DNA of 64,000 nucleotides from an uncultured Acidimicrobiaceae bacterium (lineage in GTDB: Bacteria > Actinomycetota > Acidimicrobiia > Spongiisociales > UBA5794), in NCBI GenBank assembly GCA_964569015.1, contig CAZMSN010000003.1, positions 9,257-73,256 of the forward strand, in the 5' to 3' direction. Under the pieces are notes generated by a model. It had not been told where the DNA came from. It was given only the letters and a program-made list of their open reading frames with translations, and searched no databases. The position numbers were made by a program, and so were the translations under genes. Of the stretch, positions 37,669 through 44,674 are shown piece after piece; position 1 is the stretch's first letter; every line of letters starts with the position of its first letter.

Positions 37669-37753
37669 ACCTCTCAAGGGCGCCGTCGAGGGGGCCGACA
37701 CGATGCAGAAGCGAGCTTGCGCGCTTTTCGCGCGAGTGATGTGAGGAGGTTCC

Positions 37754-39433
37754 TTGACCGGCGACGCCCGCCACCTGGGCACGATGCTCCTCGAAGAGGG
37801 GATGATCTCCAGCAAGGATCTCGAAGTCGCTGTCGCCAAACAGCGGACTTCCGGTCTTCCGCTGGGCAAGATCCTCATCGAGGAAGGCCTCGTGAACGAG
37901 GCCGATCTGGTGCGCACCCTGGCGCGGCAGATCGGTATCGAGTACGTGGACCTCAGCGAGATCGCCATCGACCCGGCCGCGGTGGCTCTCGTTCCGGAGT
38001 ACCTGCTCACGAGGTACCTCGTGCTCCCGATCGGTTTCGAGGACGATCGACTGGTGGTGGCGATGGCCGATCCCGCCAACGTGCTGGCCATCGACGATCT
38101 GCGGGCGGTGTCGGGCATGGGGATCTCCGCCAGGGTCGCTACTCGCACCGACCTCGAAGAGGCGATCCACCGCCAGCAGCGTCTCGACGACTCGGTCAGT
38201 GACCTCGCCGAACAGGCCGCCGAGGACAGACGCGAAGAAACGGACGTCAGCGGTCTCGAAGTGGCCGCCGAGGAAGCGCCGGTCGTCAAACTGATGAACA
38301 CCGTCATCGGACGGGCCGTCAACGAGCGCGCCTCAGATATTCACATCGAGCCAGGTGAACGCGACCTCAGGATCCGGTTCCGCATCGACGGTGTGCTGCA
38401 CGAGGTGATGTCGACGCCGCGAAGCATCGCCAATGCCGTCGTGAGTCGTATCAAGATCATGGCGGATCTCGACATCTCCGAGCGGCGGGTGCCTCAGGAC
38501 GGCAGAGTCGGCCTGCGAGTCGCGGGACGACCGGTCGACATCCGGGTCGCCACGCTGCCTTCCATCCACGGCGAGAAGGTCGTGCTCAGGATCCTCGACA
38601 AGGGCGCCAGCGTGGCGTCACTGGCGGATCTCGGCTTCCTGGACTACAACTTCAAGCGGTACGAATCGGCCTACAGCAAACCCTACGGGGCGATCCTGGT
38701 TACCGGTCCGACCGGCTCGGGCAAGACGACGACGCTCTACTCGACGCTGGCGGTGCTCAACCGCGAGGAAGTCAACATCATCACGGTGGAGGACCCGGTG
38801 GAGTATCGGCTGCCCGGGCTCACCCAGATGCAGGTCAATCGCAAGGCAGGCCTGCTGTTCTCCACGGCCCTCAAGTCGATCCTGCGCTCCGATCCCGACA
38901 TCATCCTCATCGGGGAGATCCGCGACGGGGAGACGGCGGCGATCGCAACGGAGGCGGCTCTGACCGGGCACCTCGTGCTCTCGACGCTGCACACCAACGA
39001 CGCCCCATCGGCGGTCGGGAGGCTCATTGACATGGGGGTTGAGCCGTTCCTCGTCAGCTCGTCACTCGACGCCGTCGTGGCGCAACGACTCGCCCGCACG
39101 CTGTGCGATCGCTGCAAGGTGCCGTACTCGCCGGAGCGTCGTGTGCTCGAGGACATCGGCTGGGAGTTCCACGGCTCGGACGAGATTCCTGAGCTGTACC
39201 GGGCTGAAGGCTGCCGGCATTGTGCCAACACGGGGTTCCGTGGCCGGACCAGCATCAACGAGATCATGTTGCTCAACGAAGAGATCCAGCACATGACGGT
39301 GGAACGCCATTCGGCCCGGGAGATCAAGAAGGCGGCCGTAGCCGAAGGGATGCGGACGCTCCGACAGGACGGGTTGGAGAAGGTGGCGCTCGGTGTGACC
39401 TCTCTGGAGGAGGTCCTCAGGGTCGTCGCGTGA
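37754..39433 (+). CDS. pilB: Type IV pilus assembly ATPase PilB (GspE family)
   Basis: 559 aa. An N-terminal T2SSE_N domain is followed by Walker A GPTGSGKTT, Asp/His boxes and a tetracysteine Zn motif (CDRC...CRHC). The TTG start follows GAGGAGG. Confidence 0.85.
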   Translation: MTGDARHLGTMLLEEGMISSKDLEVAVAKQRTSGLPLGKILIEEGLVNEADLVRTLARQIGIEYVDLSEIAIDPAAVALVPEYLLTRYLVLPIGFEDDRLVVAMADPANVLAIDDLRAVSGMGISARVATRTDLEEAIHRQQRLDDSVSDLAEQAAEDRREETDVSGLEVAAEEAPVVKLMNTVIGRAVNERASDIHIEPGERDLRIRFRIDGVLHEVMSTPRSIANAVVSRIKIMADLDISERRVPQDGRVGLRVAGRPVDIRVATLPSIHGEKVVLRILDKGASVASLADLGFLDYNFKRYESAYSKPYGAILVTGPTGSGKTTTLYSTLAVLNREEVNIITVEDPVEYRLPGLTQMQVNRKAGLLFSTALKSILRSDPDIILIGEIRDGETAAIATEAALTGHLVLSTLHTNDAPSAVGRLIDMGVEPFLVSSSLDAVVAQRLARTLCDRCKVPYSPERRVLEDIGWEFHGSDEIPELYRAEGCRHCANTGFRGRTSINEIMLLNEEIQHMTVERHSAREIKKAAVAEGMRTLRQDGLEKVALGVTSLEEVLRVVA

Positions 39434-39445
39434 CCTGCCGATAGT

Positions 39446-41095
39446 GTGCCGATGGTCACCAGCAACGTCGATCGGAAGCTGGGTGAGGTGCTCGTCAAAC
39501 GTCGCCTCCTGAGCCGGGATGACCTCGAATCCCATTTGGCTACCGTGAGTCGCACCGGCGAAGCGCTTCCCAATGTCTTGCTCGCCGCAGGGGGTGTGGA
39601 GCAGGTTGATCTCCTGCGAGTGGTATCGGAGCAGGTCGGTGTCGGTTTCGTCGATCTGGGGGCTCCCGACGCGCCCGTACCCGAGGCGGACGCACTGCAC
39701 ACCGTCCCCCAAACGCTGGCCGAGGAGCTCGGGGTGCTGCCGCTTCGATTGGAGACGGACGGGACACTCGTCGTCGCCATCGACAATCCCCTCGACGACG
39801 ATCGCCGCCGTGTTCTCGGGCAGGCGATCGACGGTGAGATCCAGATGATGCTGGCGCCGCGACCCTCTCTCCGTCGGGCCATCCTGCACGCCTACGACTC
39901 TCTGGACGGTCTCTCGCGGGCTCCCGGGGTTCCCGTCACCGGCTCTTCCGGCCCCGGCGATGTGCGAGGCGGGGAGCAGACTCGGGGCGGATCCGAAGAG
40001 GGAGACGATGGTGACGATGACGAGAGGATCTCGGTCACTGATCTCCTCCTCAGGCTGTTGAAGCGGAAGGGCTCCGATCTGCATCTGTCGGTGGGCGCCC
40101 CACCGATGCTGCGTATCGACGGATCCCTGGTGCCGCTCGACGACGTGGGAACGCTCGGGCCGTACCAGCTTCGCAAGATGATCTACGCCATTCTGACCGG
40201 CCGCCAGCGCGAGGAGCTGGAAGAGAACCTCGAGCTCGACCTGTCCTTTCCCATGAAGGACGTTGGCCGGTTCCGCGTCAACGTGTTCTTCCAACGAGAC
40301 TCGATCGGAGCCGTGTTGCGGGCGATTCCCAACCAGATCGTGCCGCTGTCCGATCTCGGGATCCCGCCCATCGTCGAAGGATTCGCCCAGCTCCAGCACG
40401 GCCTCGTTCTCGTGACCGGCCCGGCTGGTTGCGGCAAGTCGACCACGCTGGCGTCGATCGTTGACCTGATCAACACCTCCCGTGCTTGTCACGTCATCAC
40501 TCTCGAGGACCCGATCGAGTTCACACACCACCACAAGCGCTCGGTGGTCAATCAGCGAGAGATCGGCAGCGATACCCGGTCGTTCTCGATTGCGTTACGT
40601 CATGCGCTCCGGCAGGATCCCGACGTCATTCAGGTCGGCGAGATGCGAGACTTGGAGACGATCTCGACCGCGATCACCGCCGCCGAGACCGGCCACTTCA
40701 TCCTGGCGACTCTCCACACGCAGGATGCCCCCCAGTCGGTGGAGCGCATGATCGACGTGTTCCCATCCCAACAGCAGCGCCAGGTCCGGGTCCAACTCGC
40801 CAACTCGCTGCAGGCGGTGGTATCCCAGCAGCTGTTGCCGCGCGCCGACGGCACCGGACGGGCGGCGGCGGTGGAAGTGATGGTGGCGACCCCGGCGATT
40901 CGCAACCTGATCCGGGAGGGGAAGGTCCATCAGATCACGACTGCGATGCAATCGGGCGGCAAGTTTGGGATGGAGACGATGGACGACTCTCTGGCCCGGC
41001 TCGTCAGGACGGGTAAGGTCGCCTACGAGGTCGCCTACGAGCATGCCCACGATCCCGAGGGCTTCGAGAGCCTGACAAAGAGGCGGGCACGATGA
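39446..41095 (+). CDS. pilT: Twitching-motility retraction ATPase PilT with an N-terminal T2SSE_N-like extension
   Basis: The PilT core has Walker A GPAGCGKST and the PilT signature AIRNLIREGKVHQI. It is preceded by a ~150-aa domain resembling the PilB/GspE N-terminal domain and an acidic Gly-rich linker. 549 aa against ~345 for typical PilT. Confidence 0.85.
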   Translation: MPMVTSNVDRKLGEVLVKRRLLSRDDLESHLATVSRTGEALPNVLLAAGGVEQVDLLRVVSEQVGVGFVDLGAPDAPVPEADALHTVPQTLAEELGVLPLRLETDGTLVVAIDNPLDDDRRRVLGQAIDGEIQMMLAPRPSLRRAILHAYDSLDGLSRAPGVPVTGSSGPGDVRGGEQTRGGSEEGDDGDDDERISVTDLLLRLLKRKGSDLHLSVGAPPMLRIDGSLVPLDDVGTLGPYQLRKMIYAILTGRQREELEENLELDLSFPMKDVGRFRVNVFFQRDSIGAVLRAIPNQIVPLSDLGIPPIVEGFAQLQHGLVLVTGPAGCGKSTTLASIVDLINTSRACHVITLEDPIEFTHHHKRSVVNQREIGSDTRSFSIALRHALRQDPDVIQVGEMRDLETISTAITAAETGHFILATLHTQDAPQSVERMIDVFPSQQQRQVRVQLANSLQAVVSQQLLPRADGTGRAAAVEVMVATPAIRNLIREGKVHQITTAMQSGGKFGMETMDDSLARLVRTGKVAYEVAYEHAHDPEGFESLTKRRAR

Positions 41096-42336
41096 GCGCC
41101 ACCGAGGTCAGTTCCACCTACCGCTATCGCGTCCGGGACAAGACGGGGATGATCGTCTCGGGCGAGATCGACGCCAGCTCTCCGGCGAGGGTGGCCGAGA
41201 TGCTCCGTGAACAAGGACTGACACCGATCCACGTCGAGGCGAAATCGACCAGCTTGCTGCAACGCGAGATCAAGATCCCCGTCCTCGGCAATCGACTGAA
41301 GCCCCGTGACGTCGTCATCTTCAGCAGGCAGTTCGCCACCATGATCAACTCGGGGCTGTCGCTCATCAGAGCCCTCGGGGTGCTCGTCGAGCAGACCTCG
41401 AGCCCGGCGCTCGCGGAGATCCTCAGAGAGGTGCGCTCCGATGTCCGCGAGGGCGCCAGCCTGTCGTTTGCGATGGAGAAGCATCCCAAGGCGTTCAACG
41501 AGCTCTACGTGGCGATGGTCCGCGCCGGCGAAGTGGGTGGGGTGCTCGACGAGACGCTCAATCGCCTGGCCGGGATGCTCGAGGCCAACCTCAACCTCCG
41601 TTCCAAGGTTCGATCGGCGATGGCCTATCCAACCGTGATCGCCATCCTCATCACCGGAGTGACGGCGGCGATGATCATGTTCGTGGTGCCGATCTTCGCC
41701 AACATGTACACCGAGATCGATGAGGAAGCGGTGCTCCCGCTGCCGACGCGGATGCTCGTCTCCGTCTCTTCGACGGTGACACGCTGGTGGTTCGTGATCG
41801 TGGGCCTGATCGTGGCCGCGGTGTGGGGGCTGCGGCGCTGGCGCAGCACCGAGGCCGGGAGGCTCGCCCTCGACCGCCTCAAGCTGCGGATTCCGGTCTT
41901 CGGGCGCCTGGCGCACAAGACGGCGATGAGCCGCTTCTCGCGCACGATGGCGGTCCTGAGCGGAACCGGCGTGCCGATCCTGCAAGCGATCGACATCGTC
42001 GGCGACACAGCCGGCAACCAGGTGGTGACGAACGCCCTGGTGGACGTGAAGGAAGCGGTGCGCGCGGGCGAGTCGCTGGCGGAACCGCTGAGCCGCCACA
42101 AGGTGTTCCCCCCGATGGTGGTGCAGATGATGACGGTGGGGGAGGAGACGGGAGCGCTCGACGACATGCTCGCCAAGGTGTCCGACTTCTACGACCGCGA
42201 GGTCGACGACACCGTCAACGCCCTCACCAGCCTCATCGAGCCCTTGTTGATCGTGGTCATGGGGGGCGCCGTGGGAGGGATCCTCATCTCGCTCTACCTG
42301 CCGATTTTCAACCTCGCCCAGCTCGTCAACGGCTGA
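41092..42336 (+). CDS. pilC: Type IV pilus inner-membrane platform protein PilC (GspF family)
   Basis: 414 aa with two T2SSF repeats. ATGA overlap with pilT. Confidence 0.85.
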   Translation: MSATEVSSTYRYRVRDKTGMIVSGEIDASSPARVAEMLREQGLTPIHVEAKSTSLLQREIKIPVLGNRLKPRDVVIFSRQFATMINSGLSLIRALGVLVEQTSSPALAEILREVRSDVREGASLSFAMEKHPKAFNELYVAMVRAGEVGGVLDETLNRLAGMLEANLNLRSKVRSAMAYPTVIAILITGVTAAMIMFVVPIFANMYTEIDEEAVLPLPTRMLVSVSSTVTRWWFVIVGLIVAAVWGLRRWRSTEAGRLALDRLKLRIPVFGRLAHKTAMSRFSRTMAVLSGTGVPILQAIDIVGDTAGNQVVTNALVDVKEAVRAGESLAEPLSRHKVFPPMVVQMMTVGEETGALDDMLAKVSDFYDREVDDTVNALTSLIEPLLIVVMGGAVGGILISLYLPIFNLAQLVNG

Positions 42337-42401
42337 ACAGGCCCGTCGCGGTCAAATGGGCTCAACCGCGGAGGCATCCGGAGCCGATAACGGTTGGTGA
42401 G

Positions 42402-42418
42402 GGGTCGATGTGCGACCC
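42402..42418 (+). promoter_or_regulatory. Conserved 5'-UTR stem-loop upstream of pilin copy 1 (a second copy lies at 43090-43106 upstream of pilin copy 2)
   Basis: The motif is GGGTCG-N5-CGACCC. Both stem arms are conserved between the two paralogous leaders, while the loop differs (ATGTG vs AGATC). It sits about 22 nt upstream of each pilin ATG. Confidence 0.35.
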
Positions 42419-42440
42419 GGCGAGAGAAAGGTCCTTTCCT

Positions 42441-42992
42441 ATGCGATGGATGCGGGAGCGTCTCAGCAAGGAAGAGGGATTCACGCTCATCGAGTTCATG
42501 GTGGTGGTGCTGATCATGGCAGTGCTGGTGGCCATCGCCATTCCGTCCTTCCTCGGATTCCGTCATCAGGCCCAAGATCGCGCCGCGCAGAGCGATCTGC
42601 GGAACGCGTTGCTGGCCGAGAAGGCCGTCTACACCAATGACAGCTCGTTCACGGGCGTCGAGGCCGACCTGAAGGCGTGGGAACCCACGGTGGTGACCGC
42701 GGCGGCCTTGAGCACGGACGCGGTGTACGTGCAGTTCGCGGCGGCGACGTCTGATCAGGTGTGCCTCTCCCAGAAGAGCGACTCCGGGTCGACGTTCATG
42801 ATCTACGAGAACGGCACCGGCGGCACGTTCTATGCCGCCGCCGGCTCGGGCACCACGATCACGTGCCCGAGCGCCGCCGCCCCGACCCTGCCACCCAAGC
42901 AGGTCAGGGTCGCCTGGAGCGCCACCGGCTTCCCCGACGCTCCGGCGGGGAAGAAGGTCACCCCGACACCTGTCACGATCTCGCCGCTCTGA
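42441..42992 (+). CDS. pilA: Type IV major pilin (copy 1)
   Basis: Leader MRWMRERLSKEEG|FTLIEFMVVVLIMAVLVAIAIPSF is a canonical class III signal with Glu+5. Two Cys (disulfide D-region). 183 aa. The ribosome-binding site AGAGAAAGG lies upstream. Confidence 0.85.
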   Translation: MRWMRERLSKEEGFTLIEFMVVVLIMAVLVAIAIPSFLGFRHQAQDRAAQSDLRNALLAEKAVYTNDSSFTGVEADLKAWEPTVVTAAALSTDAVYVQFAAATSDQVCLSQKSDSGSTFMIYENGTGGTFYAAAGSGTTITCPSAAAPTLPPKQVRVAWSATGFPDAPAGKKVTPTPVTISPL

Positions 42993-43128
42993 GGGACGGG
43001 CCGGCGCCACGACGCCACTTGCCGTATGCGACGGTCAACGGAAAGTGGCTCAATCGGTGTGCGGTACCCGCCGATAACCATTGGGAAGAGGGTCGAGATC
43101 CGACCCCTTGAGAGAAAGGTCCATTCCT

Positions 43129-43614
43129 ATGCGATGGATGCGAGAGCGTCTCAGCAAGGAAGAGGGATTCACGCTCATCGAGCTCATGGTGGTGGTGCTG
43201 ATTATGGCAGTGCTAGTGGCCATCGCCATTCCCTCCTTCCTCGGATTCCGTCATCAAGCCCAAGATCGCGCCGCGCAGAGCGATCTGCGTAACGCGTTGC
43301 TGGCCGAGAAGGCGGTCTTCACGGCAACCAACGCGTTCACGGACGTCGAAGCCGAGCTGAAGGCGTGGGAGCCCACGGTGGTAACCGGCGCCGCCTTGAG
43401 CACGGACACGGTGTACGTGGAGTATGCCGCGGCCACGTCTGATCAGGTGTGCCTCTCCCAGGCGAGCGACTCCGGGTCGACGTTCATGGTCTACGAGAAC
43501 GGCACCGAAGGCACCTTCTACGGATCGGGCGACGCCATCACGTGCCCGAGCGCCGCCGCCCCGGCGATCCCGCCGGTGCAGGCGAGCGTCGACTGGAGCG
43601 AAACAGGCTGGTAG
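43129..43614 (+). CDS. pilA: Type IV major pilin (copy 2, tandem paralogue)
   Basis: About 90% nucleotide identity to copy 1 across the 5'-UTR and most of the CDS. Same leader MRWMRERLSKEEG|FTLIELMVV. 161 aa. Confidence 0.85.
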   Translation: MRWMRERLSKEEGFTLIELMVVVLIMAVLVAIAIPSFLGFRHQAQDRAAQSDLRNALLAEKAVFTATNAFTDVEAELKAWEPTVVTGAALSTDTVYVEYAAATSDQVCLSQASDSGSTFMVYENGTEGTFYGSGDAITCPSAAAPAIPPVQASVDWSETGW

Positions 43615-43643
43615 GAGGTTTTGTAAGAGCTTCGTGCTCACGA

Positions 43644-43676
43644 ACGAGGGGACGGACACGGAGTCCGTCCCCTCGT
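43644..43676 (+). terminator. Intrinsic-terminator-like hairpin downstream of pilin copy 2
   Basis: Perfect 14-bp GC-rich stem ACGAGGGGACGGAC / GTCCGTCCCCTCGT with a 5-nt loop, 30 nt after the pilin stop. There is no clear U-tract, which is common in high-GC genomes. Confidence 0.45.
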
Positions 43677-43741
43677 ACGCGTTCGCCACAATGCCGCGAC
43701 CCGCTCGGGTGCTTCTCTAGCCTGCGGCATCGGGAGGCACC

Positions 43742-44515
43742 ATGACCGTATCACTCGTCATTCTGGGGGCCCTGCTCGGGCTCGCCGCCGGCTCGTTCGT
43801 CAACGTGGTGGCGTACCGTGTCCCGCAGCGGGCTTCTCTTCTCCGTCCGCCGTCACACTGCCCTCAGTGCGAGCATGCGATTCTGCGCCGTGACCTGGTC
43901 CCGGTGCTGTCATGGGCGTTGCTGCGGGGGAGATGCCGCAATTGTGGGGGGCGCATCTCTATCCGGTACCCGCTGGTGGAGCTGGGCACGGCTCTGCTGT
44001 TCATAGCCACCGTGCTCGTGCTGGGAGCGGTGTGGGTGATACCGGCGTACTGGGTGTTCGTCACGGTGACCCTGGCGCTGGCCCTCATCGACATCGACCA
44101 CAAGCTGATCCCCAATCGGGTGCTCTTCCCCGGATCGGGGGTCGCCGCAGCCGCCCTGCTCGCGGGGGCGATCGCCGAAGGCACACCGGGATGGTGGCTG
44201 CGGGGAGTCGCCGGCGCGGCCGGGTACTTCGTCGGGTTGCTGCTGCTGGCGCTGATCGCGCCCCGGGGCGGCCTGGGCATGGGCGACGTCAAGCTGGCGC
44301 TGCTGCTCGGGCTGTTCCTGGGCTACCAGGCGTGGGAGCACGTTCTCCTCGGGGCGTTCATCGCGATCCTGCTCGGTGGGTTGGTCTCGGCGGTTCTCCT
44401 CCTCATGCGGAGGAAGGGGAGACAGGACACGATTCCCTTCGGTCCCTACCTCGTGGCCGGCGCCTACGTGACGATCGCATTCGGGGAGCAGATCCTCGAC
44501 TGGTACTTGGGCTAG
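43742..44515 (+). CDS. pilD: Prepilin peptidase (A24 family) PilD
   Basis: N-terminal Zn-binding CxxC...CxxC (CPQCEH...CRNCGG), polytopic membrane domain, and catalytic Asp residues (IDIDHKLIP, GMGDVKL). 257 aa. Confidence 0.9.
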   Translation: MTVSLVILGALLGLAAGSFVNVVAYRVPQRASLLRPPSHCPQCEHAILRRDLVPVLSWALLRGRCRNCGGRISIRYPLVELGTALLFIATVLVLGAVWVIPAYWVFVTVTLALALIDIDHKLIPNRVLFPGSGVAAAALLAGAIAEGTPGWWLRGVAGAAGYFVGLLLLALIAPRGGLGMGDVKLALLLGLFLGYQAWEHVLLGAFIAILLGGLVSAVLLLMRRKGRQDTIPFGPYLVAGAYVTIAFGEQILDWYLG

Positions 44516-44674
44516 GCATTCCCTCGATGTCGCCGCTGCGTAGGCCTGGTGACGACGGCAGCAGGTAGCCTGTCGTTGGCTCCTTCATGCAAAGGCGCTA
44601 CGATCAAAACGTGGATGGAATGACAGCGCTGTAATTTCATCCTTCGAGGGGCTCCACAGTCGAGCGGAGAATGC

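Follow-up and report, generated by a model that had tools for sequence, protein, structure and literature searches.

A tandem pair of type IV pilin genes

We analyzed a 64,000-nucleotide (nt) stretch of DNA, hereafter called the window, from contig CAZMSN010000003.1 of an uncultured Acidimicrobiaceae bacterium. The window carries a type IV pilus cluster with two adjacent major pilin genes, pilA1 and pilA2, each preceded by the motifs of a sigma-28 (WhiG/FliA) type promoter and by a short hairpin in its leader, and it is this repeated promoter-hairpin arrangement that is described here (coordinates in Table 1). The original prediction for this region, made from the letters and a list of open reading frames (ORFs), had described two pilin genes of 183 and 161 amino acids (aa). 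Both are borne out by the sequence, by the ORF list and by matches to the N_methyl family PF07963 (E-values of 9e-7 and 1e-7). The N-terminus of both proteins reads MRWMRERLSKEEG and then FTLIE(F/L)MVVVLI, a motif invariant in 26 family members, and the two cysteines Cys108 and Cys142, invariant across the pilin family alignment, are retained in both copies. The leader motif, the cysteine pair and the linkage to pilB/T/C/D/M/N/O identify the two proteins as type IV (class III signal peptide) pilins. Their homologues come from metagenome-assembled genomes (MAGs) of Acidimicrobiia and other Actinomycetota.

The nucleotide identity of about 90% first put forward for leader and coding sequence (CDS) holds for positions 42402-42701 compared with 43090-43389 (90%) and is somewhat high for the leader, where it is 80% (47/59) from the -10 box to the ATG. 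Within the genes it is 92% over the first 215 nt and 87% over the whole shared CDS. At the protein level identity falls from 98% over residues 1-62 to 76% over the remainder, so that the divergence lies in the C-terminal half as had been proposed, and pilA1 alone encodes a 22-aa Pro/Thr-rich C-terminal extension. The public pilA1 protein (P0001, 194 aa) begins at an ATG located inside the hairpin loop (42408); the family alignment and the Shine-Dalgarno (SD) sequence place the true start at 42441, and copy 2 has no ATG in the loop.

Predicted sigma-28 type promoters upstream of both pilin genes

Upstream of both pilin genes we found the arrangement CTCAAY-N16/17-GCCGATAA, which agrees exactly with the WhiG/FliA consensus. 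The published consensus sequences are T(A/C)AA-N16-GCCGATAA for WhiG2 and CTCA-N16-17-GCCGAACT for WhiG1 (PMC12871210). Exact copies of GCCGATAA occur at two sites only in the 64-kb window, each 51-58 nt before a pilin ATG. A third WhiG/sigma-28-type site, with a -10 element weaker than those of the pilin promoters, lies upstream of pilB, and a consensus scan of positions 41800-44200 for sigma-70 promoters found none. The motifs, their positions and their specificity for pilus genes are direct observations; from them we infer a WhiG/sigma-28-type promoter before each pilin gene. Each copy is thus predicted to have a promoter of its own, a point that the original prediction had raised for checking. 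Its notion of a conserved 5' untranslated region stands for the downstream part with the hairpin and needs correction for the first ~20 nt of the shared leader (GCCGATAAC...), which would not be transcribed because they constitute the -10 element, with a -35 CTCAAY located 16-17 nt upstream.

We then compared the sequences located 5' of the pilin-like genes of 80 related Actinomycetota loci in GTDB; L numbers below designate the loci and contigs used for comparison. The layout that recurs in these loci is a GCCGATA or GCCGAAA box followed by a variable GC-rich hairpin and then by the SD sequence. A composite promoter pattern, [CG]T[CTA][AC]A[GCT]-N14-17-[CT]CGA[TAC]A, precedes 46 of their 133 pilin-like genes versus 1.7 expected from the background rate, and the spacer is 16 nt long in 37 of these 46 promoters. 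With a relaxed -10 element the pattern was found before 65 of 143 pilin-like genes in the Actinomycetota loci and before none of 139 distant metagenome pilins. The latter came from a single-protein metagenome scan and served as a negative control only; that scan yielded just two close relatives, L081 and L082. The composite pattern is also present in relatives 5' of pilT, pilM and minor-pilin genes. A false positive of the pattern search is a conserved stretch of pilT coding sequence, GTCAAC-N16-CCGACA, located just before the codons for ILVGEMRDLET (L007, L008, L010, L020, L021 and L163). Further upstream, a small hairpin ending at the -35 element precedes each pilin promoter of the window (42340-42362 and 43014-43050), and the duplicated unit shares the homology AAA(T/G)(G)GGCTCAA, which is also found before single pilins in L161 and L162.

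A hairpin at the predicted 5' end of the pilin mRNAs

The hairpin GGGTCG-N5-CGACCC that the original prediction placed in each leader lies exactly where it was described. Its arms are identical in the two copies (12/12), and its loops differ (ATGTG versus AGATC). Divergence between the copies is high in the positions next to these conserved elements: one of five loop positions, none of the 3 nt after the stem and about 40% of the spacer between -35 and -10 are identical. The pilA2 leader folds with -14.7 kcal/mol (z -1.8), and the pilB leader (37702-37756), which carries a hairpin of its own, has a minimum free energy of -19.9 kcal/mol (z -1.3). At the GC content of the 64-kb window (67%) the 17-nt palindrome alone is no rarer than chance, with 1.3 sites expected when up to 1 mismatch is allowed. 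The significance of the hairpin therefore comes from its position and its conservation in relatives, not from the rarity of the palindrome.

To place the hairpin on the transcript we used the solved sigma-28 open complex at P. aeruginosa fliC, in which GCCGATAA spans -15 to -8 (PMC12784957). On this basis the transcription start sites (TSS) are predicted at about 42398 (42397-42399) for pilA1 and about 43085 (43084-43086) for pilA2, and that of pilB at about 37708-37710. The stem would then begin at about +5 (+4 to +6) in copy 1 and, with its AAG/CTT extension, at about +2 in copy 2. The SD sequence is located 4-15 nt downstream of the hairpin, which leaves it unpaired. A second weak helix that pairs the SD sequence in copy 1 was rejected, having no counterpart in copy 2 or in relatives.

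A covariance model of box and hairpin built for the window's clade (R1) has just two matches in the window at E<1e-4, namely the pilin leaders (pilA1, 4e-5; pilA2, 1.5e-6). Among the relatives R1 retrieved its own seeds and one new locus (L005); as it cannot bridge clades with different stems, it adds specificity and little new covariation. Searches with Rfam 15 gave no match in the whole window at the gathering score, and only chance-level matches in 42300-43760 at E<=1.

Table 1 Features of the pilus locus, with positions given in the window.
Feature	Position	Strand	Details
pilB promoter	37673-37701	+	-35 CTCAAG 37673-37678; N16 to CCGACA; -10 octamer GCCGACAC 37694-37701
pilB leader hairpin	37715-37737	+	9 bp, 5-nt loop; 13 nt past the -10 octamer; SD GAGGAGG 37744-37750
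pilB	37754-39433	+	start TTG 37754; Pfam and ORF list
PilT-like ATPase gene	39446-41095		549 aa; N-terminal MshEN
pilC	41092-42336		directly 5' of the pilin pair
pilA1 promoter, -35 element CTCAAC	42361-42366	+	TCAA core 42362-42365; fits the published WhiG -35 (PMC12871210)
pilA1 promoter, -10 element GCCGATAA	42383-42390	+	17 nt after TCAA
pilA1 stem-loop GGGTCG-ATGTG-CGACCC	42402-42418	+	arms 42402-42407 / 42413-42418; centroid structure
SD region GAGAGAAAGG	42422-42431	+	9 nt before the pilA1 ATG; same in copy 2
pilA1, type IV prepilin	42441-42992	+	183 aa; leader peptide MRWMRERLSKEEG then FTLIE; Cys108/Cys142
Irregular hairpin after pilA1	43014-43050	+	abuts the pilA2 -35; z -0.5; no T-run
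pilA2 promoter, -35 element CTCAAT	43049-43054	+	composite-motif scan
pilA2 promoter, -10 element GCCGATAA	43070-43077	+	16 nt after TCAA
pilA2 stem-loop	43086-43110	+	core GGGTCG-AGATC-CGACCC 43090-43106 (arms 43090-43095 / 43101-43106), extended by AAG/CTT
pilA2, type IV prepilin	43129-43614	+	161 aa; leader peptide MRWMRERLSKEEG then FTLIE
Strong terminator-like hairpin after pilA2	43641-43679	+	17-nt arms, 5-nt loop, no U-tract
Prepilin peptidase gene (pilD)	43742-44515		directly 3' of the pilin pair

Conservation of the hairpin in related Actinomycetota

A simple hairpin is present in 60 of the 71 distinct promoter-bearing leaders. Hairpins of -9 kcal/mol or better were found in 88% of the primary pilins versus 25% of the other pilin-like genes carrying the same promoter (Mann-Whitney test, p 3e-5). 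Compared with dinucleotide shuffles the leaders form more stable folds (mean z -1.8; Wilcoxon p 2e-10). In 39 of 49 leaders of primary pilins the stem begins 7-11 nt past the -10 octamer, which would correspond to a stem start at +1 to +5, with 0-4 unpaired nt at the 5' end, if transcription starts at the 8th nt after the box. The stems vary by clade and include GGGTCG, GGGGCCG, GAGATCG/CGGTCTC, GCGCACC, GCGCGTC/GACGCGC, GGGGCGC and others, and the length of the loop ranges from 3 to 8 nt.

Covariation was assessed with MAFFT in the window's clade and in a second clade, the -10 box serving as the anchor of both alignments. In the window's clade 97.6% of the cells are paired, two pairs are changed on both sides and one pair occurs as U-G, C-G and U-A; in the second clade 99% of the cells are paired and 11 cells carry double changes. 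In both clades the covariation score exceeds those of 500/500 shuffles and of every slid control. The original prediction had stated that its regulatory interpretation would fail if relatives displayed no compensatory variation; this check has now been run and the hairpin passed it in both clades. We also compared the folds of the two strands in 48 cases pre-selected for a hairpin on the sense strand, with the hairpin picked separately for each strand. Of these 48, 34 are more stable on the sense strand and 8 on the antisense strand (p 2e-5). Judging from these alignments, it is the structure rather than the sequence of the hairpin that is conserved.

Hairpins downstream of the pilin genes

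The original prediction also mentioned a weak hairpin after the first copy and a strong hairpin of 14 bp after the second. The former exists and is not better than shuffled sequences, which makes it a weak terminator at best. The latter is indeed strong (region fold z -4.3) and longer than first described, with arms at 43641-43657 and 43663-43679 that are 94% complementary over 17 nt. In all close relatives pilA is likewise followed by a strong hairpin, and the stem sequence downstream of pilA2 is the same as the one downstream of the single pilA of L161. No terminator consisting of a hairpin plus a U-tract was found when positions 41800-44200 were scanned. Because pilA1 has no convincing terminator, some transcripts from the first promoter probably read through into pilA2.

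Duplication history of the pilin pair

The worry that the pair could reflect a collapsed or artefactual assembly was refuted by L081, an independent metagenome contig of a strain variant that is 97.4% identical over 2.8 kb and carries both pilin genes; the two are true tandem paralogues. In L081 pilA2 encodes 164 aa and the loop of the second hairpin has a C->T change. The pilin repeat does fragment assemblies, since the L082 contig breaks inside pilA1.

The nearest relatives at species level carry just one pilA, flanked by pilC and pilD. Two or three tandem pilins with similar leaders were seen in L025 (3028/3723/4418), L067, L068, L075 and L078. These Actinomycetota MAGs are unrelated, so tandem duplication of pilin genes has come about repeatedly in the phylum. 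The tandem pilins of L162 (3001-4282) have coding regions that are 98-100% identical and different leaders, with a weak hairpin before the first pilin and a GGGGTCG/CGGCCCC stem before the second. Coding regions this similar behind leaders that differ point to gene conversion confined to the CDS in this locus. The tail of the first L162 copy is rich in Pro, Thr and Lys (…PKTKTKTKTAK) and resembles the pilA1 extension of the window.

Synonymous divergence (dS) between pilA1 and pilA2 is 0.28 overall and ranges from 0.13 to 0.53 by segment. Together with the low identity of the promoter spacers, this fits an older duplication whose coding region was homogenised in patches. The pair probably arose by tandem duplication of a unit of ~688 nt comprising promoter, hairpin and pilin gene. 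The functional elements and the N-terminal coding half are still near-identical while the spacers, the loops and the exposed C-terminal half have diverged, and the outcome would be two co-regulated pilin variants.

Gene neighbourhood

Past the prepilin peptidase gene the type IV pilus cluster continues with pilM/N/O, followed by aroC, and its surroundings are housekeeping genes (ruvAB, secDF, relA, several tRNA synthetases, mltG and pyrBR). PilB, like the PilT-like ATPase, has an MshEN domain according to Pfam, and all close relatives (L161-L169) share this architecture. As we take MshEN to be a domain that binds cyclic di-GMP (c-di-GMP), its presence on both ATPases suggests that c-di-GMP might act on pilus extension and retraction, besides transcription through WhiG and its partner RsiG. 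The intergenic region between pilD and pilM contains a near-perfect palindrome of 30 nt (44613-44642; GGATGGAATGACAGCGCTGTAATTTCATCC) that is AT-rich for this genome, and no evident WhiG-type box was seen before pilM in the window. In L168 an opposite-strand DDE_3 transposase gene (1724-2827) is located between pilC and pilA, and the promoter and hairpin of pilA are kept downstream of it.

Discussion

We propose that each pilin gene is a transcription unit of its own, with a sigma-28 promoter and a 5'-terminal stem-loop that stabilises the mRNA, a model which we regard as on balance probable. RNA polymerase with a sigma factor of the WhiG/FliA family would recognise CTCAAY-N16/17-GCCGATAA and start ~7-8 nt downstream of the -10 box. 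The GC-rich stem-loop would then form from the initial ~20 nt of the transcript, leaving at most about 4-5 unpaired nt at the 5' end, and this structure would probably shield the abundant pilin mRNA from 5'-end-dependent decay initiated by an RppH-like pyrophosphohydrolase, RNase E or RNase J. The strong 3' hairpin downstream of pilA2 would close the unit. Stabilisation appears the most likely function of the stem-loop because of the position and the conservation of the hairpin.

Several observations weigh against this model. No sigma factor gene, and hence no sigma-28 gene, is present in the 64-kb window, and when WhiG of S. venezuelae, its sequence read from a PDB alignment, was compared by tblastn with all the retrieved loci, the sole matches were genes resembling that of the principal sigma factor (L019 and L077). 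The -35/-10 spacing of copy 1 is one nt above the mode. The fold z-scores of single leaders (-0.5 to -1.8) are not individually significant, and the first pilin of the close relative L162 has only its weak hairpin. The hairpin is 5'-terminal only if the predicted start is correct; a start further upstream would remove its terminal position. We take the covariation as supportive, not conclusive, evidence, given that its counts are low, that the sequences are related to one another and that folding was used in part to pick the hairpins.

The original prediction had offered either selection on the structure or a shared operator as the reason for the conserved arms, and of the two the compensatory changes and the sense-strand G·U pairs favour the structure. 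The palindrome is a perfect inverted repeat, identical in both copies and placed where repressors often bind, as an operator in double-stranded DNA would be if a dimeric repressor or activator bound over the start site controlled both pilin promoters. We consider this very unlikely, because stem sequence and loop length vary among close relatives and G·U pairing favours the sense strand: relatives with near-identical promoters have different stems (GGGGCCG, GAGGCCG/CGGCTTC, GAGATCG/CGGTCTC and GCGCACC), loops of 3 to 8 nt would alter the spacing of the half-sites, and the sense strand with its wobble pairs is the better folder by 34 to 8. There is equally little chance that the hairpin is a transcriptional pause site, an attenuator, an insulator against read-through from pilC or pilA1, or a modulator of early elongation. 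Actinobacterial terminators often have no U-tract, and read-through into copy 2 is plausible given that copy 1 has no strong terminator. However, the distance of the hairpin is fixed to the -10 box and not to the upstream stop codon, a terminating structure at this place would also end the transcripts of its own promoter, the stems have only 6-9 bp and no U-run, and separate, stronger hairpins are located 3' of the pilin genes.

A trans-acting factor such as an RNA-binding protein, RNase III or a small RNA (sRNA) could use the hairpin as a recognition or processing site and so tune pilin translation or couple it to the assembly of the pilus, in which case the hairpin would be more than a passive stabiliser. 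The enrichment of the hairpin on major pilin leaders compared with minor-pilin genes that have the same promoter speaks for this explanation, and pilin mRNA is controlled post-transcriptionally elsewhere, for example by the Arp sRNA in Acinetobacter, as described in PMC12338739. We nevertheless judge it unlikely, since neither loop nor stem has a conserved sequence for a specific factor to read, the hairpin stays clear of the SD sequence by 4-15 nt and no Rfam family matches. Quite unlikely, in our view, is the broader idea of a dedicated cis-regulatory RNA element of major-pilin mRNAs, and of some pilB mRNAs, that is read by a specific factor throughout the phylum. Candidate readers would be nucleases or RNA-binding proteins with a link to c-di-GMP or to the membrane load of pilin, and if this were true, transcription by WhiG and hairpin-dependent mRNA fate would jointly set the supply of pilin. 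Finally, paralogues with an overall dS of 0.28 are expected to retain some identity, and the leader similarity including the hairpin could be a functionless remnant of recent duplication. We give this next to no credence: identity is concentrated in the -35 and -10 elements, the stem arms and the SD sequence while adjacent positions have diverged, and in relatives with a single copy the corresponding position holds a hairpin whose stem differs in sequence and shows compensatory changes.

If the proposed model of a sigma-28 promoter followed by a stabilising stem-loop is correct, its promoter half is a new lineage example of the published link between WhiG and pili, and its hairpin half adds a new and widely conserved case to a type of element already known. 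The arrangement is common to many related actinobacteria and amounts to tidy but fairly ordinary gene regulation. The control of type IV pili by WhiG (sigma-28), described only recently, would thereby reach into the Acidimicrobiia and further uncultured Actinomycetota, and a sigma switch linked to c-di-GMP would govern pilus production in these bacteria, which are abundant in the environment. A hairpin of conserved structure where the pilin mRNA is predicted to begin is not mentioned in the accounts of WhiG pilus promoters in PMC8325347 and PMC12871210. In practice, the promoter-plus-hairpin signature could serve as a simple marker with which to locate, in MAGs, the gene for the major pilin together with its correct start codon, and as a compact expression module for actinobacterial hosts.

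The promoters resemble those of the WhiG-dependent pilus systems of Rubrobacter radiotolerans, Rubrobacter xylanophilus and Actinoplanes missouriensis, with GCCGATAA as the -10 element and T(A/C)AA or CTCA at N16-17 as the -35 element. In Rubrobacter, start-site mapping assigned three transcription units with WhiG-type promoters to the type IV pilus cluster, and R. radiotolerans thus has three such promoters in its pil cluster, as is predicted for the window (PMC8325347). The pilus genes of Actinoplanes are likewise under WhiG-type promoters, as noted in PMC8325347, and RsiG, the anti-sigma partner of WhiG, was found in 3 of 4 Acidimicrobiales (PMC8325347). A link to c-di-GMP is common to these systems and to the window, where both ATPases carry MshEN. 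They differ in that the Rubrobacter start sites were mapped, whereas here the start sites are predictions and the sigma factor is a presumed one, and in lineage, which here is Acidimicrobiia, with MAGs of Thermoleophilia/Gaiellaceae among the related loci. Predicted WhiG control of pili also extends to Cellulomonadaceae, Jonesiaceae, Sanguibacteraceae and Cryptosporangiaceae; neither Acidimicrobiia nor Thermoleophilia/Gaiellaceae are among the families named for WhiG pilus targets in PMC12871210.

For the hairpin, the closest parallels are the 5' stem-loops that stabilise the ompA and papA mRNAs of E. coli and the aprE mRNA of B. subtilis, cited in PMC3997798. As in these cases, a short stable hairpin is located at or near the (here predicted) 5' end of an abundant mRNA, its structure and not its sequence is conserved, and the SD sequence is left free; papA moreover encodes a major pilin, so that its mRNA too specifies a surface structure. 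The window differs from these examples in that the 5' end and the function are predictions. A further difference is that the element here accompanies a single class of promoter and is encountered again and again within a phylum.

Tandem or multiple paralogues of the major pilin are frequent in the type IV pilus loci of many bacteria. The pair described here shares with them a conserved N-terminal helix, a variable exposed C-terminal half and adjacent copies whose repeats fragment assemblies, and it differs from them in that each copy has a complete module of promoter, hairpin and SD sequence.

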